Positions 3,404-58,051 of a DNA stretch of 64,000 bases are shown here, piece after piece. Numbering within the stretch: position 1 is the first letter of the stretch; each line of letters begins with the position of its first letter. The stretch lies in NCBI GenBank assembly GCA_035911095.1, contig JAMHWF010000005.1:126093-190092 (forward strand), given 5' to 3'. Both the position numbers and the translations under genes were made by a program. Origin of the DNA: Ideonella sp. (GTDB taxonomy: Bacteria; Pseudomonadota; Gammaproteobacteria; Burkholderiales; Burkholderiaceae_C). The notes under the pieces are model-generated. The model did not search any database and was not told the origin of the DNA. It saw only the letters and a program-made list of their open reading frames with translations.

Positions 3404-5071
3404 TCACCCCTCGCGTCGCAACGCCCGCGACAGCAGGATCACCGGCAGCAGTCCCACCAGCACGATCGCCAGCGAGGGCAGTGCGGCCTCGCCCAGGCGC
3501 TCGTCGCGTGCGAACTGGTAGGCGACGACGGCCAGCGTGTCGCTGTTGAAGGGGCGCAGCACCAGGGTGGCGGGCAGCTCCTTCATCACGTCGACGAAGA
3601 CGAGCAGCAGCGCCGCCAGCACCGAGCGGCGCAGCAGCGGCAGGTGGAGCCGGAAGAAGAGGCGCCGCTGCGGCGTGCCGAGCATGCGCGCCGTCTCGTC
3701 GACGCTGGCCGGCACGCGCGCGTAGCCGGATTCGACCGATTGCAGCGCCACCGCCGAGAAGCGCACCAGGTACGCGTAGAGCAGGCCGAACACGGTGCCG
3801 GTGATCAAGGCGGTGCTGCCGCCTTCCGGCCAGGCCTGCTGCAGCCAGCCGAGCGGCAGCAGCAGGCCGATCGCGATCACCGCGCCCGGCACCGCATAGC
3901 CGAGCGAGACGACCCGCGCGGCCGCGCGCAGCGAACGGGTGCCCGGCGCGCCGGCCGGCTGGCGCAGCGCGAAGCCGAGCGCGAGCGCGAACAGCGCCGC
4001 CAGCAGCGCGGCGCCGCCGGCGAGCTTGAAGCTGGTCCAGGCCCAGCCGGCGAAGCGCGCGAGCGGCAGCTCGTGCCCGTGCGCCGCGACCTCGCCCCAG
4101 AACAGCTTGACCAGCACCGCCACCGGCAGCACGAAGCCGAGCAGCACCGGCAGCAGGCAGAACAGCCACGCGGCCAGCGCGCGGCCGCCGGCGAGGCGCA
4201 GCGCGTGGGCGTCGGTGCCGCTGGTGCTGCCGGCGCGCAGGCTGGCAAAGCGCAGCCGGCGCCGCGCGCGCGACTCGAGCCAGAGCAGCGCGGCGACCAG
4301 CGCCAGCAGCATCGAGGCGAGCTGGGCCGCGGCCATGCCGTCGTACATCACCAGCCAGGCGCGGTAGATGCCGGTGGTGAAGGTGGTCAGGCCGAAGTAC
4401 GAGACCGCGCCGTAGTCGGCCAGCGTCTCCATCAGCGCCAGCGCGACGCCGGCGGCGATCGCCGGGCGCGCCAGCGGCAGCGCCACCTCGCGCACGCGGC
4501 GCAGCGTGCCGGCGCCGAGCAGGCGTGCCGCCTCCATCAGCGGCGCCGCGCGCTCGGCCAGCGCGGTGCGGGTCAGCAGGTAGACATAGGGGTAGAGGCA
4601 GAGCACCAGCAGCGCCACCGCGCCCCAGAGGCTGCGCACGTCGGGCCAGAGCGCGCCCTCGGCGCCGGTCACGGCGCGCAGCCAGACCTGCAGCGGCCCG
4701 CTGTACTGCAGGAAATCGGTGTAGGCGTAGGCGAGCACGTAAGCCGGCATCGCCAGCGGCAGCAGCAGCGCCCACTCGAAGACACGCCGGCCCGGGAACT
4801 CGAACAGCGTGACCGCCGCCGCGGTCAGCCCGCCAAGCAGCGCGACGCCGATACCGACACAGACGACGAGGACGAGCGAGGTCACCGCGTAGCCGGGCAG
4901 CACCGTGTGCCACTGGTGCGAGAGCACCGCGAGCGCCGAGGCGTCGAGTGCGAACCAGGAGCCGAGCACCGCGAGCACGGGCACGGCGAGCAGCAGGGCG
5001 ATCGGGATCAGCAGGCGCAGCATGGGCGAGGGTGGTGGCGCAAGCGCCGGACTAATGCGAACCATCCTCAT
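3404..5071 (-). CDS. Fe(3+) ABC transporter permease (FbpB/HitB-like, duplicated 6-TM permease)
   Basis: This is a long polytopic protein with two ABC permease EAA-type segments (EAARLLGAGTLRRVREVALPLARPAI and ETARMLGTPQRRLFFRLHLPLL). The start is uncertain: in-frame ATGs occur at 5071, 5065 and 5023, none with a clear SD. Confidence 0.85.
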   Translation of the reverse strand: MRMVRISPALAPPPSPMLRLLIPIALLLAVPVLAVLGSWFALDASALAVLSHQWHTVLPGYAVTSLVLVVCVGIGVALLGGLTAAAVTLFEFPGRRVFEWALLLPLAMPAYVLAYAYTDFLQYSGPLQVWLRAVTGAEGALWPDVRSLWGAVALLVLCLYPYVYLLTRTALAERAAPLMEAARLLGAGTLRRVREVALPLARPAIAAGVALALMETLADYGAVSYFGLTTFTTGIYRAWLVMYDGMAAAQLASMLLALVAALLWLESRARRRLRFASLRAGSTSGTDAHALRLAGGRALAAWLFCLLPVLLGFVLPVAVLVKLFWGEVAAHGHELPLARFAGWAWTSFKLAGGAALLAALFALALGFALRQPAGAPGTRSLRAAARVVSLGYAVPGAVIAIGLLLPLGWLQQAWPEGGSTALITGTVFGLLYAYLVRFSAVALQSVESGYARVPASVDETARMLGTPQRRLFFRLHLPLLRRSVLAALLLVFVDVMKELPATLVLRPFNSDTLAVVAYQFARDERLGEAALPSLAIVLVGLLPVILLSRALRREG

Positions 5072-40724: not shown

Positions 40725-41419
40725 TGCGCGTCACGGGCGACGAACCGCACCAGGCGGCGCCCGGCGCCGCGCCCTGGCCCGAACCGACCCGCGTGCTGGC
40801 GATCCGCCACGGCGAGACCGCCTGGAACGTCGACAGCCGCATCCAGGGCCAGCTCGACATCCCGCTCAACGACAAGGGCCGCTGGCAGGCGCGCCGCATG
40901 GCGGCCGCGCTGGCCGACGAGCCGCTCGAGGCGATCTATGCGAGCGACCTCGCGCGCGCCTTCGAGACGGCCACGGCGCTGTCGGCGGCCACCGGGGTCG
41001 CGGTGCGCGGCGAGCCCGGGCTGCGCGAGCGTGCCTTCGGCCACTTCGAGGGCCAGACCTTCGCCGAGATCGAGCAGCGCTGGCCCGAGCTCTCGCTGCG
41101 CTGGCGGCGCCGGGAGCCCGACTTCGGCCCGGTGGGCGGCGAGACCCTGCAGGCCTTCTTCGACCGGGTCGCGGCCACCGCGCGCCGGCTGGTGGCCGGC
41201 CACGCGGGCGGCACGATCGCGCTCGTGGCGCACGGCGGCGTGCTCGACTGCCTCTACCGCCTCGCCGCGCGCGTCGAGCTGAACGCCTCGCGCACCTGGC
41301 AGCTCGGCAACGCCAGCATCAACCGCCTGCTCTATACGCCCGACGGCTTCACCCTCGTCGGCTGGAGCGACACCTCGCACCTCGACGGCGCATCGATGGA
41401 CGACGGGGTCGAGAGATGA
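40724..41419 (+). CDS. Histidine phosphatase family protein (phosphoglycerate mutase-like)
   Basis: The RHG motif is LAIRHGETAWN. It also has SDLARA, ERAFGHFEG and VAHGG. The start overlaps the PEBP stop by 1 nt (TGATG). Confidence 0.85.
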   Translation: MRVTGDEPHQAAPGAAPWPEPTRVLAIRHGETAWNVDSRIQGQLDIPLNDKGRWQARRMAAALADEPLEAIYASDLARAFETATALSAATGVAVRGEPGLRERAFGHFEGQTFAEIEQRWPELSLRWRRREPDFGPVGGETLQAFFDRVAATARRLVAGHAGGTIALVAHGGVLDCLYRLAARVELNASRTWQLGNASINRLLYTPDGFTLVGWSDTSHLDGASMDDGVER

Positions 41420-41432
41420 GCGTGGCCCGCCG

Positions 41433-42575
41433 ATGAGCCGCACGCTGCCGCGCCCGGGAGAAGGCGTCGACGCCGTCGACACGCCGGCGCTGGTGGTGGA
41501 CCTCGACGCGATGGACCGCAACCTGCAGCGCATGGCCGGCTTCGCCGCCGCGCGCGGCCTGCGCCTGCGCCCGCACGCCAAGATGCACAAGTGCGCCGAG
41601 ATCGCACGGCGCCAGATCGCCGCCGGCGCGGTCGGCGTGTGCGTGCAGAAGCTCGAGGAGGCTCTCGCGCTCGCCGCCGGGGGCATCGACGACATCTATA
41701 TCAGCAATGAGATCGTCGCCCCGGCCAAGCTCGAGCGCCTGGCCGCGCTGGCGACACGCATCCGCATCGCGATCGCGGTCGACAGCCCGCTCGGCATCGA
41801 GCGCCTGGCCGCGGCGCTAAGCGCGGCGGGCAGCACCGCCGACGTTTTCGTCGAGGCCGACATCGGCCAGGGGCGCTGCGGCGTGCCGCCTTCGCAGGCC
41901 GGCGCGCTGGCGCGCCAGGTGGTGGCCCACGGCCTGCGCCTGGGCGGCCTTCAGGCCTACCACGGCGGCGTCCAGCACCTGCGCGACGCAGCCGCGCGCG
42001 AGGCCGCGCTGCGCCATGCGATCGGCCTCGCACGGGCGGCCCAGGCCTCGATCACCGCCGCCGGCCTCGACTGCCCGCTCGTCACCGGCGCCGGCACCGG
42101 CAGCTTCGTGCACGAGGCGGCCAGCGGCCTCTACGGCGAGCTGCAGGCCGGCAGCTACCTCTTCCTCGACCGCGACTACGCCGACAACGAGCCGACGCCG
42201 CAGGCCCCGGTGTTCGAGCCGGCCTTGTTCATCAAGGCTCAGGTGATGAGCCGCGGCGAGGCGCACGCGGTGATCGACGCCGGCCACAAGTCGCACGCGC
42301 TCGACAGCGGTCCGCCGCGGGTGCATGGCCGCGAGCTCGTCTGGCACAACGGCGGCGACGAGCACGGGCTGCTGACGCGGCCGCCCGCCGGGGCCCCGCG
42401 CGCGGCCGCGGCGCCGGCGACCCTGCCGGCGCTCGGCGAGACGGTCTGGCTGATGCCCGGCCATTGCGACCCGACGGTCAACCTGCACGACCACTACGTC
42501 GTGCTGCGCGGGGGCCTCGAGCGTGGCGTCGTCGAGGCCGTCTGGCCGATCGACGGGCGCGGCGCGCTCGGCTGA
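41433..42575 (+). CDS. DSD1 family PLP-dependent enzyme (D-serine dehydratase / D-threonine aldolase-like, alanine racemase N-terminal fold)
   Basis: It contains TPALVVDLDAMDRNL and the PLP-Lys region RPHAKMHKC, followed by QKLEEA and the C-terminal PGHCDPTVNLHD. Confidence 0.8.
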   Translation: MSRTLPRPGEGVDAVDTPALVVDLDAMDRNLQRMAGFAAARGLRLRPHAKMHKCAEIARRQIAAGAVGVCVQKLEEALALAAGGIDDIYISNEIVAPAKLERLAALATRIRIAIAVDSPLGIERLAAALSAAGSTADVFVEADIGQGRCGVPPSQAGALARQVVAHGLRLGGLQAYHGGVQHLRDAAAREAALRHAIGLARAAQASITAAGLDCPLVTGAGTGSFVHEAASGLYGELQAGSYLFLDRDYADNEPTPQAPVFEPALFIKAQVMSRGEAHAVIDAGHKSHALDSGPPRVHGRELVWHNGGDEHGLLTRPPAGAPRAAAAPATLPALGETVWLMPGHCDPTVNLHDHYVVLRGGLERGVVEAVWPIDGRGALG

Positions 42576-43039
42576 GGGCCGACCCCGACCTCGACCTCGA
42601 CCGCCGCGGTGGCCCGCAGGGCTGCCGGTGACCGGCCCGACCCCGATCCCCACTTGCCGCGGCGGTGACCCCGTTCCAAGCGGCCGCGCCTCCCCGCGCG
42701 CCGGGCGCGGGCGCCGCGTCGCTCGCAAGCGGCCCCGCACCGCGCTGACGTGACCCATTGCCTGCCCGCCGGCAAGGCGGCGCACAGACGCGGGCGGCGT
42801 GAAGTAAGCGCGTGAGCGTTCGCACGGACCCTGGTGGGCGGGCCGGGCGCCCGGCGACAGCTGCCGAAATGGCCGTTGAAACTGGCTCACCTCCATCGAT
42901 GGCGGCGGTTGGTTAGGCAAAAAGATCCTCACCCCGGGGCTTTGGCCCGTGCGAGCGGCAGGTGGCGTCGACCACCGGCCTCCGGCACGGCGCAGGGCTA
43001 CTGAGAAGAACGCCTCCGCCAATAACAACCTGAGCACGC

Positions 43040-44782
43040 ATGCGCCTTCGTCACCCCTCCAAGCTCACGCACGTCCTCGAACCCTCCAGACCCGCCCTGC
43101 GCCGCTGTCAGCCGCTGATCCTCGCGGCCGCCCTGCTGTCGGCGCTGCCCACCGCCTGGTCGCAGGCACTGCCGCCGCAGCTGCCTTCCGCCGCGGAGCC
43201 GGGGCGCGAGCCCCTTCGCCCGCCGCAGCCGCTGCCGCAGGGCAGCGTCCCGCCGGTGTCGGTGCCGCAAGGCACGGTGACCCGCGCGCCGGCCGGCGCC
43301 GACCAGCTCCAGTTCACGCTGACGCGGGTCGACGTGAGCGGCGCCACCGCCTACACGGAAGCCGCGCTGCGCCCGCTCTACGCCGACCTGCTGGGCCGCG
43401 CGATCAGCGTCGCGCGGGCCTTCGAGGTGGCCGGGGCGATCGAGCGGCGCTACCGCTCCGAGGGCTACGTCACCACGCGCGTGCTCGTGCCCGAGCAGAC
43501 GATCGCGGACGGGGTGTTCCGCATCCAGGTCATCGAAGGCTTCATCAGCGAGATCGTGATCGACGACCAGGTCGGTCGCGCTCGCGTCGCGGTCGAGCGC
43601 CTGCTGGCCTCGCTGCGCGGCGCCAAGCCGGTCAACGTCGCCGAGATCGAGCGGCGCCTGCTGATCGCCAACGACCTCGCCGGGCTCACCGTGCGCGCCA
43701 CGCTCGAGCCCTCGCTCACCGAGCAGGGCGGCTCGACGCTGGTCGTCAGCACGGCCCGGCTGGCGCGCGAAGGCAGCGCCACGCTCACCAACCGCATCTC
43801 GCCCTACCTCGGCAGCGCCGAAGTCGGCGCGACGCTCGCCTTCAATGCGGTGGGTGAACGCGCCGACCGCATCCGCCTCGGCGCGCGCAGCTCGCTGCCG
43901 CTGGGCGGCAGCGCCAGCATCACCGGCGGCTGGGACGCGCTGGTGGCCGACAACGGCAGCACGCTCGGCCTGTCGGCCACCTACAGCCGCTCGAAGCCCG
44001 GCCGCGAACTCGACCCGCTGAACGTGCGCAGCAACGTCAGCGCGGCCGAAGGCACGCTGGCCTACCCGCTGGTCCGCTCTCGGCTGCAGAACCTGCGCCT
44101 CGTCGGCCAGTTCGAGGCGCGCAACGTCGACACCGACATGGTCGGCACGGCCTACACGCGCGACCGCCTGCGCATCGCCCGCGTCGGCCTCAGCTTCGAC
44201 CGCGCCGACCGCTGGGACGGCATCACCGCCGGCCGCGTGATGCTGCACCAGGGCCTCGACGTGCTGGGCGCCAGCAAGCGCGGCAATGCCCAGGCCTCGC
44301 GCGCCAAGGGGCGCAGCGAGTTCACCAAGCTGACGGCCGAGCTCACGCGCCTGCAGCAGCTGGGCGCCCGCACCAGCCTGCTGGCGACGATGGCCGCGCA
44401 GTGGACGCCCGACGCGCTGCTCGCCAGCGAGGAGATGGCCCTTGGCGGCGCGAGCTTCGGCCGTGCCTACAACGACGGCGAGATCTCCGCCGACAGGGGC
44501 ATCGCCGGCTCGGTCGAGCTCCGGTACAGCCCGGCGCAGACGCTGCTGCCGCACGGCATGCAGCTCTACGGCTTCCTCGACGGGGGACGCGTCAGCGCCG
44601 CCTCCGAAGGCATGTCGCCCGGCACGCGGCGTTCGCTCGCGTCGTTCGGCCTCGGGGCGCGCGCCAACCTCCTGCCCCGCGTGCTCGCCTCGATCGAAAT
44701 CGCCAAGCCCGTCAGCGCCCAGGTGGCGACCGAGGGCAACAAGCATCCGCGCGTCTTCGCCTCGTTGACCGCCCAGTTCTGA
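43040..44782 (+). CDS. ShlB/FhaC/HecB family two-partner secretion outer-membrane transporter (TpsB)
   Basis: A signal peptide is followed by a Pro-rich linker. The POTRA segment reads FTLTRVDVSGATAYTEAAL...FRIQVIEGFISEIVI. The rest is a beta-barrel body with a C-terminal aromatic residue (...SLTAQF). Confidence 0.9.
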   Translation: MRLRHPSKLTHVLEPSRPALRRCQPLILAAALLSALPTAWSQALPPQLPSAAEPGREPLRPPQPLPQGSVPPVSVPQGTVTRAPAGADQLQFTLTRVDVSGATAYTEAALRPLYADLLGRAISVARAFEVAGAIERRYRSEGYVTTRVLVPEQTIADGVFRIQVIEGFISEIVIDDQVGRARVAVERLLASLRGAKPVNVAEIERRLLIANDLAGLTVRATLEPSLTEQGGSTLVVSTARLAREGSATLTNRISPYLGSAEVGATLAFNAVGERADRIRLGARSSLPLGGSASITGGWDALVADNGSTLGLSATYSRSKPGRELDPLNVRSNVSAAEGTLAYPLVRSRLQNLRLVGQFEARNVDTDMVGTAYTRDRLRIARVGLSFDRADRWDGITAGRVMLHQGLDVLGASKRGNAQASRAKGRSEFTKLTAELTRLQQLGARTSLLATMAAQWTPDALLASEEMALGGASFGRAYNDGEISADRGIAGSVELRYSPAQTLLPHGMQLYGFLDGGRVSAASEGMSPGTRRSLASFGLGARANLLPRVLASIEIAKPVSAQVATEGNKHPRVFASLTAQF

Positions 44783-44800
44783 ACATCAAGAAAAACCACC

Positions 44801-47800
44801 ATGCGCAACCGTCGTTGGACCCCCGGTATCCGCCTCGCCCATCAACTGGTCTTCGTGCGCTGCCCGCGCCGCGTGCGACGCGCGCTGCGCTGGCACCTGC
44901 TGCGCGGCCACGGGGTCGCGCTCACCCAGCTGGCGCTGGCCGCCGGTGCGGCTGTGGCGCCGATGCTGGCCACGGCCAACCCGACCGGCGCGCAGGTGGT
45001 GGCGGGCAAGGTGCAGGTCCACAGCAGCGTGCCGACCGTGCTGGACATCCAGCAGCAGAGCAACCTGGCCATCATCCACTGGCAGAGCTTCAACATCGGG
45101 GCGGGCGAGACGGTCAACTTCGTCCAGCCCTCGCTGCGCAGCGTGGCGCTGAACCGGGTGCTGGGCAACGACCCCTCGGCGATCTTCGGGCGCCTGAACG
45201 CCAACGGCACGGTGATGCTGGTCAACCCGAACGGCGTCGTCTTCGGCGCCGGCTCGCGGGTCGACGTGGGCGGCCTGGTGGCCACCACCGCCGACATCAA
45301 GGACAGCGACTTCCTGGCCGGCCGCTACCGCTTCGGCCAGGCCTCGCCCGTGTCGGGCGCGGCGGTCGTCAATGCCGGCCACATCAGCATCAAGGACAGC
45401 GGCCTGGCGGCCCTGGTGGCGCCGCGCGTGGCCAACAGCGGTGTCATCGAGGCGAAGCTGGGCCGCGTGGCGCTGGGCGGCGCGCAGACCTTCGCGCTCG
45501 ACTTCCAGGGCGACGGCCTGCTCAGCTTCAGCGCCGGCTCGGCGGTCGACGCCAACGGCCAGCCGCTGGTCAGCAACACCGGCACCCTGAGCGCCGAGGG
45601 CGGCAGCGTGCTGCTCACCGCGCAGGCCGTGCAGCGCGTGGTCGACACCGTCATCAACACCGACGGCGTGATCGAGGCCACCTCGGTGGGCAGCCATGAA
45701 GGCCGCATCGTGCTGTCAGGCGGCAGCGCGGGCGGCGTGGCCGTCGCGGGCACGGTCGATGCCTCGGGCCGCGGGACGGGCGAGCACGGCGGCACGGTGC
45801 AGGTCACCGGCCAGGCCGTGCAGGTGAAGCGCGGCACCGCGATCGATGCCTCCGGCGACGCCGGCGGCGGCGAGATCGCACTGGGCAGTCGCGGCGTGGC
45901 CTCGGGCTTCGCCGACAAGAGCGAGACCACCCGCGTCGACGCGGGCGCGACCCTGCGAGCCGACGCGCTGCGCCAGGGCGACGGCGGCAGCGTCACCGCC
46001 TGGTCGAGGGACACGACCGTCTTCGCCGGCAGCCTGTCGGCGCGCGGCGGTGCCGAGGGCGGCGACGGCGGCTTCGCCGAAGTCTCGAGCCTGAAGCACA
46101 TCGGCCTCACCGGCAGCGTGGACCTGCGCGCGCCGAAGGGCGCGACCGGCCAGCTGCTGCTCGACCCGACCGACCTGCGCATCACCGACAGCCCCTCGGG
46201 CGGCAGCCAGGACGGCAATGCCGGCGACGGCCAGGTCGCGGCCGGCGACCCCAACCAGGGCGCGGACGACACGCTCAACACGGTCTCGCGCGGCCTGCTC
46301 GAAAGCATGGCCGGCAACGCCAACATCACGCTGCAGGCCACCGGCCAGATCACCGTCGACGCGATGGCGGGCGGGCGCATCGACCTGGCCACGGCCCCGG
46401 GCCACAGCTTCACGCTGCAGTCCACCCAGAGCGGCGGCATCCGCTTCGCCGACGCGCAGACCGAGATCCGCACCCAGGGCGGCAACATCACGCTCGAGGC
46501 GCAGGGCATCGGCAGCAGCCTGGCCAACATCGGCAAGCTGACCAGCAACGGCGGCACCGTCGCGCTGCGCGCCACCGGCGACATCCAGCTGGCTGGGCAC
46601 ATCGATGCCGGCAGCGGCGCGGTGCAACTGCAGTCCACCGTCGGCTCGATCACCAACGGGGCCGGCTCGCCCCGCCTGAGCGGCGCCTCGGTCGAGCTGT
46701 CCGCCCGCGGCGGGCAGATCGGCGCGGCCGGCAACGCGATCGCCACCACCACCCCGCGCCTCGGCCTCGAGGCCGGCGGCAGCATCCACGCGGCGAACAG
46801 CAGCGCGCTGACCGACCTGTCGGTCAACGCGCTGCACGCCCTCGCCGGCAGCCACGGCTACCAGGTCAGCGCCACCGGCCTCGACCTGCGCATGACCGAC
46901 GGCAGCGTCGTCAGCGCCGAGCGCGTGGTCCAGGCCGGCGGCCTGAACCTCGCGCTGTCGAGCGACCGCACGCTGGAGGTCGGCACGATCGACGTCGGCA
47001 GCGGCACGGCCACGCTCTCGAGCCGCGGCGGCAACCTCAGCGGCGCCGCCGGCAACCGGGTCACCGCCGGCTCGGTGAAGCTCGGCGCCGAAGGCAGCGA
47101 CGGCAACAACGGCGCCATCGGCAGCGCCAGCCAGGCGATCCACACCGCCACCGCGCGCCTCGAGGCGACCACCGGCAGCGGCGGCGCCTTCGTCGCCAAC
47201 ACCGGCGCGCTCGACCTGGCCAGGCTCGGTGCCACCGGCGCGTCGCGCGTCAGCGCCACCGGCAGCCTGACCGCCGGCAGTGTCGACGCCGGCAGCGCCG
47301 CCTTGACCCTCGCCTCCACGACGGGCAGCGTGCTCGACGACGGCTCGGCCGCGACCCGCATCACGGCGGGCGCGCTCACGGTGAATGCCGGCGGCGCCGT
47401 CGGCGGCGCCAGCCTGCGGCTGCAGACGACCGCCACCGAGTTCAATGCCGACGCCGCCTCGGGCGGCGTCCACGTCCACAACGCGGCGACTTCCTCGACG
47501 CTGGCGGACGTCCGCTCGGGCAACGGCGCGATCGACATCACGACCGGCGGCAGCACCACGATCGGCAACCTGCTGTCGGCGACCTCGGGCGCCGGCAACG
47601 GCATCACGGTCGCGGCCGCCGGTGCGGTCACCGTGAACGGGGCCGTGAACGCCGGGTCGCAGGGCGACGTGCAGCTGAGCACCACCAGCGGCGCCATCTC
47701 CGACGGCAGCAGCAGCCTGGTCACCGGCCACACCGTGTCGCTCAGCGCCACCTCCGGCGTCAGCGCCCGCACCGCGGCCTCGACGCTGCAGGTGCAGGCC

Positions 47801-50800
47801 GGCACCGGCAACGTCACGCTGGTGCAGGCCGGCAGTGTCAGCGTCGAGCAGATCGCCACCACCGGCAGCACCGTCACGCTCACCGCCACCGACGGCGACA
47901 TCACGGTCGGCGCGGTGCAGTCCGGCCTCTCGGGCAGGGTCAGCCTGAGCGCCACCGATGGGTCGATCCTCGACGACGGCGATGCCGGCACCCGCATCCA
48001 GGCGAAGACGGTCGCGCTGGACAGCGCCGGCTCGATCGGCGACGCCAGCCACGCAGTGCAGACCAAGGCCACCGAACTGTCGGTGGCCGGCGCGGGCGAC
48101 CTGTACGTCAGCAACGACAGCACGCTCACCAGCCTGGGCGTCGATCACCGCCACGCCACGCCCGGCCAGGCGGCGACGCTGCAGATCACCTCGCCGTACC
48201 TGACGTTCCAGGTCGGCGACAACGGCTCGGCCTATGCAGTGGAGCGCCTGGTCGGCGTTCCGCTCACCGACCTGTCGTTCCAGGGCGACCAGACGCTGGT
48301 CGTGGGCCAGGTGCAGGGCGCCGGCAGCGTCAGCCTCGTCGCGACGCAAGGCGACATCCGTGACGACGGCAATGCGCAGTCGCGCATCACGGCCGGCGGC
48401 AGGCTCAGCCTGCAAGCGAGCCAGGGCAGCCTGGGCAGCGCGACCACGGCGCTCGACGTCAACGCCAGCCAGCTCGTGCTGGCGACCCACGGCGACCTCT
48501 ACCTGCGCAGCCTGGCCGACCTGTCCTCCCTGGCGATCAGCAGCACCCACGCGGACGCGACCACCAGCTACGGCATGGCGATCAGCGCCCCGTCGCTGAA
48601 CTTCAGCGTCACCGACTCGGCGGCCGGGCACCACGTGCACACGCTGACCGACACCTCGTCGCTGAGCCTCGAGTTCGCGAGCGACCGCGACATCACGCTC
48701 GGCCGCGTCGACGTGAGCGACAGCGGCAGCGCGAGCTTCACCTCGACCGGCGGCAGCATCCTCGACGACGGCGACAAGAGCACCCGCGTGCTGGCCGACA
48801 GCACCACGCTGAGCGGCGCTGCCGTGGGTGCCAGCGGCAACGGGCACCTCGACGTGGTGACCAGCCAGCTCTCGGCCACCGCCACTGCCGGTGGCGTCTA
48901 CATCGAAGTGCCGATGCCCGCGGGCAGCAGCAACACCACCAGCACGCTCACGCTGGGTTCCGTCACCGCGGCCGGGCCGGTCGAGATCCGCGCGCTCGAG
49001 GGCGACGTCTCGCTCGGCGGGGTGATCACGGCGACCGACCAGGCGGTCAGCCTCAGCGCCCAGCGGGGCTCGATCCTGAGCCCCTCCGGCTACTTCGGCT
49101 ACACCGGCGGCTTCCGCATCGGCAGCGGCAGCCTGACGCTGAACGCCGCCCAGTCGATCGGCACCGAAGGGCGCGCGGTGTGGTTCGACGGCGAGGGCGC
49201 GAGCTTGCAGGCGCAGGCCGGCACCTCGATGTTCCTGACCGCCGGCAATGCGACGACCCTGGCCAGCCTGCAGGCCGGCAGCGGCATCACCTACACCCAG
49301 AACAGCGGCACGGTCACCGTGGGCCACGTGGACGCCACCGCGGGCGGCACGGTGTCGATCACCGCCGCCAGCGGTGCGATCGAGGACGACGGCAACGGCG
49401 CGACCGGCGTCAGCGCCGGCCAGGTGAGCCTCGCGGCCAGCACCGACATCGGCAGCGCCGGCAGGGCGGTCGCGGTGGCGACGCCGAGCCTGGCGCTCAG
49501 CGCCAACGGCACGGTGAACGTCGCCGACAGCGTCACGCTGCAGAGCCTGTCGCTGACGCGCGGCAGCGGCTCGACCGGCAGCATCGCGATCACCGCGGGC
49601 GCGGGCCAGAGCTTCACGATCACCGAAGACGCCAGCGAGCACCTGCTGCAGGCCGTGAGCAGCGGCACGCCGCTGGACTTCAGCTTCTCGGGCCAGCGCA
49701 CGGTCAAGGTCGGTGACCTCGACGTCGGCGCGGCCGGCTCGGTCACCCTCGCCTCCGCCACCAGCGTGGTGGACGACGGCCAGGCCGGCACCGGGATTGC
49801 GGCCGGCACCGTGTCGCTCACCGCCGGCACGGCCGGCTCGATCGGCGCCTCGGGCAGCGGCAACGCCATCAGCCTGGAAGGCACGACCTCGCTCGCGCTC
49901 AGCGCCGGACGCGACATCTTCGCCAGCAGCGACACCAGCCTGACGGACCTGTCGATCGCCAGCACCAGCGCCGGCGGCAGCAGCCAGTTCGGCGTCGTCG
50001 CCCAGGGCCAGACCTTCGGCATCACCGACAACGGCAGCACGCAGAGCCTCGACTTCAGCGGCAACGCGCTCGGCAACTTCAGCTTCAGCAACCACAAGAA
50101 CATCCAGGTCGGCACGATCAACGCCACCGGCGACGTGACCCTGGTCACCCGCAACGGCGGGGCCAACAGCAACATCAGCAGCGACGGCGGCAGCGGCCGC
50201 ATCGCCGGCGGCCGCGTGCTGCTGACCGCCGCCTCGAACACCGCCAACGGCGGCTCGATCGGCAGCAGCGGCACGGCGTTGCGCGTCGACACGCCTTCGC
50301 TGATCCTGGACGGCAGCGCCAACGTCTACGTCAACGACGCGCAGGACCTGAGCTTGCTGGACATGACGCTGACCCACGGCACGAACACCACGTTCGGCTA
50401 CGGCGTCACGGCCACCAACATCAACTCGTTCTCGGTCACCGACGGCAGCACGCAAGCCCTGGGCCTTGCGGTCAGCAACGCGATCGACTTCCGCTACAGC
50501 GTGGATCGGGCGCTGATCCTCGGCACGATCGACGCCGGCACCAGCAGCGTCGGCGCGATCTCGCTCACCTCGCGCAGCGCGCCCACCGGTACCAATGCGC
50601 AGATCAACCGCGCCAGCGGCACCCTCGTCGCCGGCAGCGTCACGCTGTCGGCCATCGGCAGCAACGGCGGCGTGGGCGCCACCGGCACGATCAGCACCGG
50701 CACGCAGAACCTCAGCATCGCCTCCGGGGGCAATGTCAGCGTCAGCAACAGCACGACCCTGAACTCGCTGAGCCTGGAAGCGCTGCACCGCACCAGCGGC

Positions 50801-53800
50801 AGCAACACGCACACCTACGGCCTCAGCTCCACCGGCCTGACCTTCAGCGTCACCGACAACACGGGCACCGACGGCCTCCACCTGAACAACATAGCCCAGT
50901 CGGGTCTGGACCTCACGGTCAAGTCCGACCGCACGATCACCGCGAGCGCGGTGAACACCGGCGTGGGCGGCAAGGTGACGCTCGACAGCAACACCATCCG
51001 GGGCGGCAGCGGTGCCAGCGCCGGCAATCCCTCGATCTCGACCGGCGACCTCACGCTGCTCGGCTACAGCGCACACGGCAGCTCGGGCGGCGCGCTCTAC
51101 ACCGCGGCCCAGACGCTGAGCAGCACGCTCAGCGGGAGCCTGGAGCTGTCCAACAGCGGCGACCTGACCTTGCGCCACAACAGCGTGGGCTCCTCGGCCG
51201 TCGTCGCCAGCAGCAATGGCTCGCTGCGGCAGGAGGCGGGCGGCCTGTTCACCGCGCCGACGCTGACGCTGAAGGCGCAGCAGTCGCTCGCCGGCGGCGG
51301 CGGCAACACGCTGGCGACGAACGCACGCCAGCTCAAGCTGGAGTCGGGCGGCGACATCGACGTCGCCAATGTGACCGACCTCTACACGCTCGAGCTGGTG
51401 TCGAACCACGCCACGCCGGGCGCGCAGAACACGATCTCGGTGCAGGCCGACCGCCTCAACCTGGCGCTCACCGACAGCGTCGCCGGCGACCAGTACCACC
51501 TCGCGCAGCTGACCGACAGCAGCGGCCTTGATTTCACGCTGCGCACCGACGTCGCGCTGGCGCTGGGTGCCGTCGACGTGCACGACGGCCGCTCGCTGGG
51601 CCTCTACAGCACCGGTGCGGGCACCTCGATCACCAACGACGGCAGCAGCCTGCTGAAGGCGGGCGACATCACGCTGTCGGCCACCGGCTCGGTGGGCGCG
51701 GCCGGCGACGGCACGACGCGCATGCAGACCGACGCGCTGGGCGTGCGCCTGATCACCGGCGGCAACGCCTACCTCGACAACGCGCAGGACCTGAGCAACC
51801 TCTCGCTGACCAGCAACCAGTCGACGGGCGGCACGGCACCGGTCTACGAGGTGACCGCCCCGTCGCTGAGCTTCGCGCTCAGCGACGACGGCACGACGCA
51901 CCTCGACCAGGTGGTCGACAGCACGGGTCTGAACTTCGTGCTCGACACCCGGCGCAGCCAGGCGATCGGCGTGGTCGACGTCGGTCCTTCGGGCAGCGTG
52001 TCGCTGAAGAGCGCGGGCGACATCCACGGCGACGCCGACAGCAGCAAGCGCCTCACCGCGGCCAGTGTCACGCTGCAGACGTCCCAGGGCGGCGACGTGG
52101 GCAGCGTCGCCAACCCGATCCATCTTTCGGCGCCGCTCGCGACGTTCCGCGTCACCGGCGCGCTGAACGTCGAGTCGGACACCCACATCGACAGTCTCAC
52201 CGTCCACACCACCCACCCGACGGCGACTTACGGCGGCACCTACAGCATCGTCTCGGTGCCGGTCACGGGCGCAACGCCGTACGCGCTGTTCACCGCGACG
52301 GACGACGCAGCCGGGACCGAGCTGACCCAGGTGTCCGATCCGGAAGGCCTGGCGTTCACCTACTCGAGCGACCGCGACATCAAGGTCGTCACGCTCGACC
52401 TGGGCAGCACCGGCACCGTGGCGCTCACCAGCGGCGGCAGCATCGTCGGCGACGGCGATGCGAACACGCTGATCCAGGCCGCCGGCCTGAAGCTGAACGC
52501 CGACGGGGCCATCGGTGGCGCCGGGGCGGGCAACGCGATCGACGCCAAGGTGGGCACGCTGGATGCCCGCGCCGACGGTGGCGCCGTCAAGCTGGCGCTG
52601 CATGGCGCGACCACGATCGGCAGCCTCTACGGCAGCGACGGCGTCGGCCTGGTCAACGCGGTGGGCGACATCCACCTGGGCTCGATCGACGCCGGCGGCG
52701 ACACCGTGGACATCGACAACCAGGGCGGCTCGATCCTCGGCGGCTCGATCAATCGCAGCACCACGGTGATCCTGAGGGCCGCGGGCTCGATCGGCAACCA
52801 GAGCGCGATCCGCACCACCGCCAACGGCGGCGGCACCACCACGCTGACGGCCGAGGCCAGCGCGGCGAACGGCGCCGACGGCAGCGTCGCGGTGACCGAG
52901 AGCTACAACCTGAGCGCGGTGGCGGTGACGGCCCCCGCGGCCGTCACGCTGGAGGCCGGCAGGGCGCTGTCGGTCGGCACCGTCGACAGCGGCGGCGCGG
53001 TGAGCCTGAAGGCCTCGCAGGGCAACCTGACCGGCGTCGACGGCAGCAACTCGATCAGCGGCACCAGCGTCAGCCTGGCGGCCAGCTACAACGGGAGCAT
53101 CGGCACCAGCGGGACGCGCCTGAACGTGGACACGACGGCGCTCGACCTCAAGGCGCCGGGCAACGTCTACATCAGCGGCCAGGCCGACCTGGACAGCCTG
53201 AGCATCGACCGCAGCAACAGCAGCTCCGGGAATTTCAGCAGCGGTGCGCTCAGCGTGACCGCCACCAACCTGACCCTCAACGCCAGCGACGGCGGCAACA
53301 CGACCACCTTCACGACACTGACCGACAGCACCGGGCTCGACTTCAGCTACCTGGGCATCGGTTCGATCAACGTGGGCACGGTCGACGTCGGCAGCGGCTC
53401 TGCGCTGCTGAGGGCCAGCCTCTACCAGGGCGACGGCCACATCCGGGCGGTCGACGGCTCGTCGTCGATCACCGCGGGCGCGCTGACGCTGCAGGCCAAC
53501 GGCGCCGCCAGCGCGATCGGCAGCAGCGGCACGGCGCTCGGCATGGCCGTCGACTCGTTGACGGCGAGCTCGGGCACCGGCGGCCTCTACGTGCGCCAGG
53601 CCGGCTCGCTCAGCCTGAGCGACCTCAACACCACCGGCAACCTGTCGGTGAACGCCACCGCAGGCGACCTGACGCTCGGCAACCTCAGCTGGGGCGGCAC
53701 ACTGGACCTGAATGCGGCCGCGGGCAGCATCCTGGCGGGCGGCGGCGCGCTGGCCGGCAAGTCGAGCACCGCGTCGGTGACGCTGAGCGCGGCCAACGGC

Positions 53801-56800
53801 ATCGGCACCGAGCTGGCGCCGGTGCTGGTCAACGGCGCCCAGGGCCATGCCGTCAGTGCCAGCGTTACCGGCACCGGCTCGCTCTACCTGGCCAGCGTCG
53901 CCAAGCTGAACGGCGGGTTGACCACCTCGGTGAACAACGGCGCCACGTCCATCAGTGCGGCGGACGACATCCGCCTCGCCTCGCTGACCTCGAACACGGA
54001 TGCCGAAGGCAACGACATCCGGGTCGTGGCCACCGCCGGCAACATCACGGCAGTCAGCGTGTCGGCTGGCGGCGGTGACGCGCGCCATGCCGAGGTCGAC
54101 CTGTCGGCCAACGCCGGCAGCATCCTGGCCACGTCGAGCAGCACGTTGCAGGGCGCGGGCATCCGCCTGCACGGCACCGCGGGCGTGGGCTCGGCGAGCC
54201 AGCGCGTGATCGCCAACAGCAGCGGCAGCGTGCAGGTGAGCAGCACCGGCGGCGACATCTATCTGGGCACGGCCGGACCGTCGGTGCTGACCAACATCAG
54301 CTCCGCGGGCGGAGACATCGACATCGCCAGCGCCAAGGACCTGCTGATCGCCAACGCCTCCTCGGGCGGCGGCGACATCAAGGTGGCGGGTACCGCCAAC
54401 GACGTGGCCCTGAGCGCCGGCAACATCGACGCGGGCGCCGGCAGCGTGACGCTGGCCTCCACCTCCGACGGCGGCAGGCTGCTCGACGACGGCGACGCGA
54501 CGACGCGCATTCGCGGCGCGACGGTCACGCTCAACGGCAAGGCCGGCGTCGGCGCCGAGTCGGCCCGTCTGCAGACGGCCGCCGGCACGCTCGACGCGAG
54601 CAGCGGCAACGGCATCTACCTGGCCGACCAGAACGCCGCCGGCGTCACGCTGCGGTCGGTGGTCGCCAGCGACGGGGCGGTGAGCATCACCACCGCCGGG
54701 CCGACCACGGCCACCCTGGTCAAGGCCGAGACCGACGGCGCGGGCAAGGACGTCAGCATCAGCACCAGCAGCGGCAACCTGACGCTCGGCGCGGTGACGG
54801 CCGGTGCGACGCAGGGCCGGGTGCTGCTCGCGGCCGCGGGCTCGATCCTCGGCAGCGGCGGCGGCGCGCAGGTCAGCGCCCATGGCGTCAGCCTGAGCGC
54901 GGGGGCCGACATCGGCACGGTGACCGACCCGGCCACCGGCGCGGGCAGCCCGGTCACGCTCGACGTCGACGTGATCGAAGCCCTCGGCACCACCGGCAGC
55001 CACCGCGTGGTCTCGGTCGAGCACGTGGGGACCGACGCGCTGACCCTGGGCAGCGGGATGCTGTCGCTGGGCAGCGGCAGCTCGGTCTACATCAAGGCGG
55101 GCGGCGACCTCGACGCGACCGCGAGCCTGGGCTCGACCAGCGGCACGCTGTCGCTGACCTCCGGCGGCACGCTGACGCTGCCGGACGCGGCCTTCGTCTC
55201 TGCCGGCGCGGTGCGCCTCGTCGGCGCCACCGACGTGGTGACCAGCGGCAGCGGCGACGCGGCGCGCAACCTGCGCGTCAACAGCAGCTCGCTCACCCTG
55301 CGCAGCGGCGCGGCGGGCGGCGACACGCTGCTCACCACGGCGGTCGGGGCCGTCGACGCGGAACTGCAGGGGGCAGGCGACCTGACGCTGCTCAACACCG
55401 GCACCGTGGCGGCAGCGACGCTGAAGACCAGCGACGGCGACATCACGGCCACCAGCAGCAACGGCCTGGTCGTCGACTCGGCGGTCGCGGGCGGCAGCGA
55501 ACGCCAGGTGGCGCTCACGGCCACCGGCGGCGACCTGAAGGTGGGCACGATCAGCGCAGGAACGGACGGCAGCCTGCTGCTGACGTCCAGCGCCGGCTCG
55601 ATCCTCGGCGACGCGGCCGTGCTGGTCGGTCAGTCGCTGGCGCTCAGCAGCGCCACCGGCATCGGCTCCAGCACCGCGGCGTTCAACACCGACATCGGCC
55701 ACGTGAGCGCCGAGGTCACCGGCAGCGGCGACATCCACCTCGCCTCGGCCGGCACCCTCCACCTGGGCCGGCTGGCGACGCAGGACGGCGACATCGCCGT
55801 CCGTGCGACGGGCGACGTGAACACCACGACGCTCAGCGCCGGCCAGGGCGGCAGCGTCACGCTGGCCTCCAGCCACGGCAACGTCCTGTTGACGCAGGCG
55901 CTCGCGCTCGACGGAGGCGCGCTGCTGATCGACGGCAATGCGGCCCTGGTCGGCGGCGCCCACAGCCTGGCGACCGGCGGCGGCGCGCTGCGCATCACTG
56001 GCGCGCTGATCGGCGGCGACGAGGCGGCCACGCTCGACGCGGGCAGCGGTGCGGTGTCGCTCGAAGGGGCGGTGTCGAACCTGGCCTCGCTGACGGTCAC
56101 CGGCGGCAGCATCCATACCGCGGGCGTCAGCACCGATGGCGCGCAGACCTATCACGGCAGCACCACGCTGAACGGCGCCCACGCCACCCAGGGTGGCGCC
56201 TTCACGGTCGACGGCGCGACGACGCTCGGCAGCGCGACGACGGTGGCGACCGCTGGCGGTGACGCGAGCTTCAAGGGCGGCGTCGACGGCGCGGCCGACC
56301 TGAGCGTGAGCACCGGGGCCGGCAACACCCGCTTCAGCGGCGCGGTGGGCCAGACGGCGCGGGTCGGTCAGCTGACGGTCGACACCGCCGGCACCACGAC
56401 CTTCAGTGGCGCCGTGGCGGCAGCCAGCGTCGCCACCGACGCGGCCGGCACGCTGGTGCTCGACGGCGGCAGCGTCAACACCACCGGCGCGCAGCGCTAC
56501 GGCGAGCACGTGACGCTCGGGACGCACACGACGCTCACCGGGCAGGGCGTGGCTTTTGCCGGCGACATCGACGGCAACGCCAACCTGACGGTCAACTCGG
56601 GCACCGGTGTGGCGAGCTTCGGCGGCGACATCGGCGCGGCGACGCGCATCGGCCGCCTGAGCGTCAACAGCGCCGGCGCCACCAGCTTCGACGGCACGGT
56701 GAGCGCGGCCAGCGTCACCACCGACGCCGCGGGCTCGCTGGCGATCAACGGCGGCAGCATCGACACCACCGGCACGCAGACCTATGGCGAGCGCGCGGTG

Positions 56801-58051: not shown

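Follow-up and report, generated by a model that had tools for sequence, protein, structure and literature searches.

Two-partner secretion is usually explained through FHA, HMW1, ShlA, and CdiA. With the FhaB/FHA and FhaC pair of Bordetella, the Ideonella locus described here has in common a TPS domain, an adjoining Omp85-type TpsB, a very long β-rich repetitive passenger, and a conserved C-terminal region that is probably regulatory rather than catalytic. In contrast to the 19-20-aa repeats of FhaB, however, the Ideonella TpsA has a unit of about 126 aa, with 25 units in fixed order and no match to PF05594 or PF13332, and its locus differs further by an expandable array of about 89-aa units, by the gene sapC, and by having no recognisable long prodomain. 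Three genes with an accessory third one are likewise found in HMW1A/B/C of Haemophilus and EtpBAC of enterotoxigenic E. coli, which represent the non-toxin adhesin type. Passenger size and repeats of these adhesins differ from those of the Ideonella TpsA, and their third gene, a cytoplasmic accessory, encodes a glycosyltransferase, whereas a SapC-family protein is encoded here. CdiA/CdiB/CdiI systems also combine a giant TpsA and a TpsB with a small gene directly downstream, but the Ideonella TpsA lacks VENN/PT-VENN, DUF637, a polymorphic toxin, and a variable immunity gene, and its C-terminus is conserved. Finally, TpsAs with DUF5649, DUF5650, YDG, and MBG_2 show that passengers can use units of more than 20 aa. 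Two of them, carrying DUF5649/YDG and DUF5650/MBG_2/YDG, respectively, are encoded in the same Ideonella genome, whereas hmmscan found none of these four families in the tpsA product.

The window analysed comprises 64,000 nt of Ideonella sp. (GCA_035911095.1, contig JAMHWF010000005.1, 126,093-190,092, forward strand). In this window, tpsA is preceded by tpsB and followed by sapC, and the following features are distinguished:

43040-44782, plus strand: tpsB, outer-membrane transporter of 580 aa (POTRA_2, E 1.2e-19; ShlB, E 3e-19)
44801-58051, plus strand: tpsA, single exoprotein ORF of 4416 aa, coordinates including the stop codon
44975-45730, plus strand: TPS secretion domain, residues 59-310 (PF05860, E 1.6e-35; TIGR01901, E 2.1e-23)
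46409-55861, plus strand: class-1 array, residues 537-3687, with 25-26 copies, 15 of them full and 10-11 truncated
56141-57607, plus strand: class-2 array, residues 3781-4269, with 5 copies of about 89 aa and the motif T-T-G-x-Q-x-Y-G
56678-58048, plus strand: conserved C-terminal region, residues 3960-4416, with the last class-2 units, a β-rich cap, and PYF-x-N-x-x-W-x-P
57848-58048, plus strand: terminal 67 residues, 4350-4416, of conserved sequence and with no confident predicted fold
58068-58799, plus strand: sapC, third cassette member, encoding a SapC-family protein of 243 aa (PF07277, E 5.6e-63)

The 4416-aa TpsA of the original prediction is thus present, and its TPS domain contains an NPNG motif at residue 142, as found in a motif scan. 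Both sequence hallmarks of a type Vb TpsA, the N-terminal TPS domain with NPNG and an adjoining TpsB with POTRA and ShlB domains, are found, and the tpsA product is a predicted TpsA exoprotein of two-partner (type Vb) secretion. An antisense ORF of 3990 aa (45716-57688, minus strand) was set aside: homology is confined to the plus strand, and the ORF is regarded as a side effect of repetitive, GC-rich coding sequence. The adjoining TpsB shares 54% identity with the transporter encoded beside the Achromobacter orthologue of tpsA, and tpsB also adjoins tpsA orthologues in a neighbourhood check. SapC is 57% identical to its Achromobacter copy, and sapC lies directly 3' of orthologous tpsA genes at two further loci, so that the order tpsB-tpsA-sapC is kept in all three loci examined. 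The cassette is rare: among 401 genomes from this order, 2 contain it. A PDB sequence search with SapC gave no meaningful relative, and a Pfam scan detected no glycosyltransferase domain in it.

The preferred reading, with a probability of about 0.7, is that the tpsA product is a giant TpsA exoprotein without a toxin, which most likely serves as a surface fibre or adhesin. The adhesin role is assigned by analogy as the most likely one, because literature searches (SapC/PF07277, two-partner secretion, and Achromobacter/Azospirillum filamentous hemagglutinin) gave no study of the tpsA family. The original prediction had proposed a very long β-helical fibre, and this agrees with AlphaFold models, in which residues 1040-1642 are all-β with a pLDDT of 92.5. 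The C-terminal region is also all-β with a pLDDT of 86.0, and the value is at least 90 over most of the stretch 3960-4349. The models were computed from shallow alignments of 15-16 sequences, and AlphaFold can be over-confident on repeats. Fold-search matches were all weak and all β-solenoids, with none in the PDB at E<=1e-3 and one borderline match in BFVD. They comprise SPATE passengers, the TPS domains of HxuA, HMW1, and EtpA, CsgA, tailspikes, and the S-layer protein RsaA. A β-solenoid class is a best guess for TpsA.

Among the alternatives, a released matrix, surface-layer, or biofilm scaffold instead of a cell-anchored adhesin, with SapC acting in export or maturation, is unlikely but retains some weight. 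The SapC family name derives from a Campylobacter S-layer locus, and this hint at an S-layer, the co-conservation of SapC, and the presence of RsaA (S-layer) and CsgA (curli subunit) among the weak fold matches would fit such a scaffold. The conserved terminal tail, in contrast, suits a FhaB-style control of retention or release, yet it is compatible with both a released and an anchored form.

Class-1 copies were found with an HMM iterated from one module of about 126 aa (domain E-values as low as 3.5e-41), and the array spans about 3150 residues of TpsA. Consecutive full modules are spaced by 129-142 aa, corresponding to 387-426 nt, which matches the composite module of about 390-420 nt that had been proposed. 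The repeat itself was recovered between 46.6 and 53.7 kb, where 20 copies start instead of the 17-19 originally estimated; an additional partial class-1-like copy lies at residues 4149-4213 inside the class-2 array. G-S-I-L-D-D-G anchors begin at 47960, 48350, 48752, and 49373, as had been noted, and also at 47324, whereas the remaining proposed site, 49763, is assigned to the module starting at residue 1645. A role of the 'DDG(D/N)' anchor in periodic calcium binding was weighed and rejected, as conservation of these columns across 188 full modules is no more than moderate. The second half of the module has a conserved His, F-x-x-x-D, and L-x-F-S-F, with long strands and two-residue turns in the model.

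An ordinary FHA-type TpsA, in which the 126-aa module would be a by-product of 19-21-residue β-helix coils and a composition rich in Gly, Ala, Ser, and Thr, is very unlikely. A weak undertone of 21-22 aa does exist, with whole-protein autocorrelation peaks at lags of 20-22 (z about 5), a strand pattern with a lag of 21-23 in the AlphaFold model, and weak peaks at lags of 22 and 63-65 in the module profile. Nevertheless, neither Fil_haemagg (PF05594) nor Fil_haemagg_2 (PF13332) matched the whole protein at E<=0.01 or any of six pieces of it at E<=10, although PF13332 does match another TpsA encoded in this GC-rich genome. In a profile-profile comparison of the module with itself, no internal repeat emerged (probability 0.4%), and no module match was obtained in composition-preserving controls consisting of 20 fully shuffled copies and 20 copies shuffled within 25-aa blocks. 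Furthermore, the class-1 module was not found in either of the two further TpsAs of this genome, and its profile is unrelated to their repeats (hhalign probability <=1.7%; the comparison covered DUF5649, DUF5650, and one stretch resembling Fil_haemagg_2). As the undertone is weak and the module self-comparison negative, the array does not resolve into plain 19-20-residue repeats, and the earlier view that the dominant repeat is not a short FHA unit is upheld. The long-period module is the statistically dominant repeat of TpsA. No Pfam or NCBIfam repeat model matches it, a PDB sequence search with its profile gave nothing meaningful, and only 188 representatives matched it among 1.84 billion proteins, about 23 of which are giants with roughly 14-23 copies. 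The label 'non-canonical' holds for this module, which is uncatalogued, but not for long repeats in general, because databases already list TpsAs whose repeats are not of the Fil_haemagg type. What is novel is this particular module together with its fixed array; with the class-2 repeat added, the architecture is two-tier and likewise uncatalogued.

The full class-1 modules within TpsA show a mutual protein identity of 20-40%. At the DNA level, Tandem Repeats Finder detected no long-period array and direct repeats are fragments of 60-80% identity, in line with the strong divergence noted earlier. Orthologues, whose pieces were taken from a search for homologous proteins, are found in Roseateles, Ideonella, Achromobacter, Bordetella ansorpii, Azospirillum, and Nitrospirillum, and full-length ones have 38-66% identity over the stretches compared; a search of genome contigs with a single 603-aa TpsA piece found no relative. 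In 16 orthologues of beta- and alphaproteobacterial origin, full and truncated modules follow one another in the same order as here and occupy almost unchanged positions. The best match of a full module is its positional counterpart for 14 of 15 modules in the orthologue P0012, for 12 of 15 in the Azospirillum orthologue, and for 9 of 15 in the Achromobacter orthologue. The array appears ancient because modules mostly resemble the positional orthologue more than neighbouring modules, and these comparisons strongly support the original suggestion of old, stably maintained modules. Judging from the sequences, number and order of class-1 modules appear to have changed very little since a time preceding the split between beta- and alphaproteobacterial copies. 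Members of the family also occur in Azospirillum, which is plant-associated, and in Achromobacter xylosoxidans, an opportunist, where the database annotation is only 'filamentous hemagglutinin N-terminal domain-containing protein'.

The comparison of module counts that had been proposed revealed a different behaviour of the second repeat. Its predicted position at 56.1-57.2 kb is confirmed by four T[TDS]GxQxY sites at 56132, 56480, 56765, and 56990 and by an autocorrelation peak at 95 aa (z 7.7). While the class-1 order is nearly fixed, class-2 copies, counted by profile search, range from 5 in the Ideonella TpsA to 8-44 in 16 orthologues by the same count; by a stricter count, one orthologue likewise has 5. 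In some orthologues, class-2 copies are up to 100% identical, and the length range of the orthologues (4416-7528 aa) maps to this array. By eye, T-G-x-Q-x-Y-G resembles the Y-D-G and Y-G-x signatures of YDG-type repeats; a kinship with YDG/MBG prompted by the Y-G motif was not supported by hmmscan.

The C-terminal region bears on the question of a toxin. A CdiA-like contact-dependent inhibition protein, whose toxin and immunity protein are too divergent to be recognised, would have the observed size, TPS/TpsB organisation, and small gene directly downstream (58068-58799). CdiA C-termini are polymorphic, whereas over the C-terminal 457 residues the Ideonella TpsA and 14 orthologues share 42-59% identity and 51 invariant columns, so that this part is conserved across genera. 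The terminal 67 residues contain the conserved positions VPS-x-P, LF, and P-x-VL and have a pLDDT below 50 (model residues 391-457), so that the predicted C-terminus, consisting of β-repeats of β-solenoid-like character and a low-confidence tail, leaves no room for a globular toxin. Motif scans of TpsA detected neither VENN nor (E/Q)LYN or related motifs, and no toxin or pre-toxin domain, including PT-VENN and DUF637, was found when pieces were scanned at E<=10. No significant PDB fold or sequence match was obtained for the C-terminal region. The downstream gene encodes the conserved SapC and not a variable immunity protein. A CdiA-like function is accordingly highly improbable, and the initial impression that pre-toxin boundaries and CDI-type markers are absent is supported. 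The suggested hmmscan for Fil_haemagg, Fil_haemagg_2, PT-VENN, and DUF637 remained without match. A haem/haemopexin-binding (HxuA-like) or cytolytic (ShlA-like) TpsA is hardly credible, because the name 'Heme:hemopexin utilization protein A' given to two orthologues by their sources is automatic and based on the common TPS domain, outside of which no similarity was found, and because HxuA and ShlA are far shorter and without class-1 and class-2 repeats. In its favour stand this name and the weak fold match to the TPS domain of HxuA.

For the preferred reading of a giant non-toxin fibre or adhesin, the following route is suggested by established knowledge of type Vb secretion (FhaB/FhaC and HMW1A/B). 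TpsA would pass the inner membrane via Sec, and its TPS domain would dock onto the POTRA domains of TpsB. The chain would then thread the TpsB barrel and fold module by module outside the cell into a β-solenoid-like rod, which would be roughly 90 nm long if each coil takes up about 21 residues and adds 4.8 Å. The fixed class-1 shaft may serve as a spacer of set length, while the expandable class-2 array and the cap would form the distal and probably binding end if the direction of the fibre is analogous to FhaB and HMW1. By the same analogy, the conserved terminal tail may hold the fibre at the transporter or control its release. A more far-reaching proposal is that the 126-aa module represents more than six ordinary coils, namely a new structural unit of type Vb fibres whose second half would provide a module-specific element protruding from the rod at intervals of ~126 residues. 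In that case, the 25 modules, each conserved individually, would form a fixed-length fibre with non-equivalent sites, acting as a molecular ruler or multi-site platform, and SapC would be a dedicated cytoplasmic factor for such giant cargo. This proposal is speculative and rather doubtful as a whole.

The tpsA family shows another way to build a very long passenger, namely by combining a fixed shaft with a distal array that is free to grow and shrink. As a fixed and a variable array occur in one protein, the family provides a clean natural case for asking what sets the length of a fibre and which part of it binds. A repeat model for the family would improve annotation, and the cassette supplies another fixed context for the orphan SapC family.

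The tpsA gene is one uninterrupted open reading frame of 4416 codons with a G+C content of about 72%, and it forms a cassette with its two neighbours:

43040-44782, + strand: tpsB, with POTRA_2 and ShlB domains, immediately 5' of tpsA
44801-58051, + strand: tpsA, with a TPS secretion domain at residues 59-310 (PF05860, E 1.6e-35; TIGR01901, E 2.1e-23)
58068-58799, + strand: sapC, SapC family (PF07277, E 5.6e-63), immediately 3' of tpsA, starting 17 nt past its stop

The TPS domain is the sole part of the TpsA protein known to Pfam and NCBIfam. No ESPR (PF13018) was recognised in the leader ahead of it (44801-44975, + strand), unlike in the two other TpsAs of the genome. Because the leader stretch LVFVRCPRRVRRALRWHL is nearly unaltered in the closest orthologues, it probably belongs to a distinct, conserved leader. 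A 3990-codon open frame antisense to tpsA (45716-57688, - strand) lacks homology support as a gene and is best explained by the GC-rich repetitive coding of the plus strand. Ordinary housekeeping genes surround the cassette: those for a PEBP, a histidine phosphatase and a D-serine-dehydratase-like enzyme lie 5' of it, while ruvB and ruvA lie 3'. About 2.6 kb 3' of sapC, past ruvB/ruvA, a LuxR-type response regulator and a 7TMR-DISM histidine kinase are encoded (61447-64000, - strand), and in an Achromobacter contig (L013, 338-3929) a 7TMR-DISMED2 hybrid kinase and a receiver-AraC regulator lie immediately 5' of tpsB. These 7TMR kinases near both cassettes could reflect a common regulatory theme or a coincidence.

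The original prediction described a long-period repeat, the anchors of which were located at 47324, 47960, 48350, 48752 and 49373. With residues 1041-1171 as the seed, iterative profile searches of the protein converged on a 126-position model (class 1) with 26 matches. Fifteen of these span the whole model (domain E-values 1e-9 to 3.5e-41), while the other 11 end after the first 60-107 positions. The matches tile residues 537-3687, with an additional partial copy at 4149-4213, and from one full copy to the next the start shifts by 129-142 residues. At the same threshold, 20 whole-sequence shuffles and 20 shuffles within 25-residue blocks gave no match. Thus, the long-period repeat is real; 20 copies start between 46.6 and 53.7 kb, compared with the predicted number of about 17-19. 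The profile matches neither of the two other TpsAs of the genome, so the module is not common to all its TpsAs:

G000, C107, ~41075-51751, - strand: giant TpsA of 3558 aa, with ESPR signal extension and catalogued repeats, without the class-1 module
G000, C71, ~157006-168375, - strand: giant TpsA of 3789 aa, with ESPR signal extension and catalogued repeats, without the class-1 module

Short periods form an undertone in the protein. Its autocorrelation peaks at lags 20-22 as well as at 132-137 and 272, lags 22, 41-46 and 63-65 stand out weakly (z 1.4-2.9) in a profile built on 188 full modules of 17 proteins, and the strand pattern of the AlphaFold shaft model recurs at 21-23, 31-32 and 132-133 residues. 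Profile-profile self-comparison of class 1 gave no off-diagonal alignment (probability 0.4%), and no haemagglutinin repeat model matched when pieces of the protein were scanned at E<=10, so that the ordinary 19-20-residue Fil_haemagg repeats named as the competing outcome were not seen. Thus, the ~126-aa module is the unit of sequence repetition, and its roughly six coil-length segments are now distinct positions. As internal positive controls, the same scan detected Fil_haemagg_2, DUF5649 and YDG in one other TpsA of the genome and DUF5650, MBG_2 and YDG in the remaining one. The DUF5649/DUF5650/Fil_haemagg_2-like repeats of these proteins were unrelated to both repeat classes of TpsA in hhalign (probability <=1.7%).

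The shaft was modelled with AlphaFold from residues 1040-1642, comprising full (F) and partial (p) modules in the order F F p p F, with a shallow alignment of 16 orthologous pieces. The model (pLDDT 92.5, pTM 0.86) consists of 57% strand with negligible helices. Foldseek returned no PDB match at E<=1e-3, and the best, weak matches were all beta-solenoids (EspC, SepA, VacA, the HxuA TPS domain, CsgA and tailspikes), from which we infer a beta-solenoid-like rod distant from any solved one. A viral library gave a similar picture, including the entries 'Hemagluttinin repeat protein' and 'Parallel beta-helix repeat'. The beta-helical fibre of the original prediction agrees with the all-beta model and the weak beta-solenoid matches. 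In the second half of each modelled module, strands are longer with two-residue turns between them, and the most conserved class-1 positions (His, F-x-x-x-D, L-x-F-S-F, D-R) fall in the same half, which leaves room for a putative module-specific element there.

Databases give the full-length relatives of TpsA no name beyond 'filamentous hemagglutinin N-terminal domain-containing protein'. Identity over the compared stretches is 50-66% for Roseateles, Ideonella, Aquabacterium and Niveibacterium, and 38-51% for Achromobacter xylosoxidans, other Achromobacter, Bordetella ansorpii, Pollutimonas, Azospirillum and Nitrospirillum. In 16 orthologues, spanning Burkholderiales to Alphaproteobacteria, the class-1 profile has 24-27 matches each in a near-identical succession (p F p F p F F p p F F F F p F F F p F p F p F ...) at almost equal residue numbers. 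Full modules within TpsA share 20-40% identity (mean 30%), and the positional counterpart is the best match for 14 of the 15 in the orthologue P0012 (48-77% identity), 12 in Azospirillum and nine in Achromobacter. Because order is shared and positional counterparts match best, the modules appear to have become distinct from one another before the split between beta- and alphaproteobacterial copies, and to have remained unhomogenised afterwards. This fits the picture at DNA level, where Tandem Repeats Finder reported no long-period array and direct repeats in tpsA are short pieces of 60-80% identity. The conserved order and this divergence bear out the predicted old, stably maintained modules.

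The second repeat class, also anticipated, consists of five ~89-aa units bearing T-T-G-x-Q-x-Y-G at residues 3781-4269 (autocorrelation lag 95, z 7.7; mean identity 31%). This class-2 array behaves opposite to the fixed class-1 array. With the same profile, orthologues contain 8 to 44 units, TpsA having the smallest array of those compared, and by a stricter count the identity between units rises to as much as 100% in Niveibacterium and Achromobacter insolitus. Protein length across the family (4416-7528 aa) follows class-2 copy number, whereas the class-1 shaft is constant. A homologous stretch with 49% identity in another sampled genome (G335, C1, 156604-162123; pieces L010 and L012) lies inside a 9410-codon open frame, which exceeds every relative from the protein search (longest 7531 aa).

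The C-terminus is without a toxin. VENN-type motifs, PT-VENN and DUF637 were sought in TpsA and none was found, as predicted, and the last 457 residues are conserved in 14 orthologues (42-59% identity, 51 invariant columns, including P-Y-F-x-N-x-x-W-G-P and the tail V-P-S-x-P ... L-F ... P-x-V-L). At 57812-57875 (+ strand, residues ~4338-4358), the near-invariant W-G-P of the family is W-A-P in TpsA, followed by a five-residue insertion, P-L-L-V-Y, present in none of the 14 aligned orthologues. AlphaFold, again with a shallow alignment, predicts beta structure for residues 3960-4349 (pLDDT mostly >95), with pLDDT <50 for the last 67 residues. Foldseek found only weak beta-helix matches (PL6 lyase, HMW1 and EtpA secretion domains, IgA1 protease, RsaA, CsgA), and PDB sequence searches found nothing for this region and no relative of SapC. 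The SapC protein shares 57% identity with its counterpart next to the Achromobacter tpsA orthologue and is thus more conserved than TpsA itself, which is the reverse of the immunity-gene pattern.

Among 1.84 billion proteins, only 188 cluster representatives matched the class-1 profile, and about 23 of these are giant proteins in which the module occurs roughly 14-23 times. Of the whole genomes sampled, 2 of 401 from the order, G335 being the only other carrier, and 2 of 201 from the family have the gene, and it is absent from the one other genome of the genus. In this genome (G515, C3, 41735-50938, piece L022), compared with positions 42576-58857, no TPS cassette stands between the D-serine-dehydratase-like gene and ruvB; an IclR regulator, a Liv-type branched-chain amino-acid ABC transporter and a MacB/HlyD pump are encoded there instead, which makes this a variable region. 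The order tpsB-tpsA-sapC is kept at all three loci compared, namely the present one, L013 and a metagenomic contig (L014) with unrelated flanks. Given this rarity and conserved order, the cassette is an accessory unit, and its patchy spread suggests that it may move between genomes.

The family is present in databases, uncharacterised, and neither Pfam (2025 copy) nor NCBIfam release 20 has an entry for its repeats. TpsA falls into the known category of TpsAs with long non-FHA repeats, like the other two of the genome; what appears to be new is the class-1 module itself, the fixed 25-unit array, and its contrast with the expandable second array. While the architecture is close to certain, the function, approached by analogy, is uncertain; the protein is likely (probability about 0.7) a non-toxin surface fibre or adhesin with two arrays. 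Type Vb secretion is established for FhaB/FhaC and HMW1A/B. By analogy, TpsA would cross the inner membrane via Sec, its TPS domain would be recognised by the TpsB POTRA domains, and the chain would thread the TpsB barrel and fold vectorially outside the cell into a rod about 90 nm long. The conserved tail, for which no fold is predicted with confidence, would fit a part in retaining the protein or controlling its release. As in FHA, the mature C-terminal end would face away from the cell, so that the functional tip would consist of the class-2 array and the cap, with the fixed class-1 shaft as a spacer.
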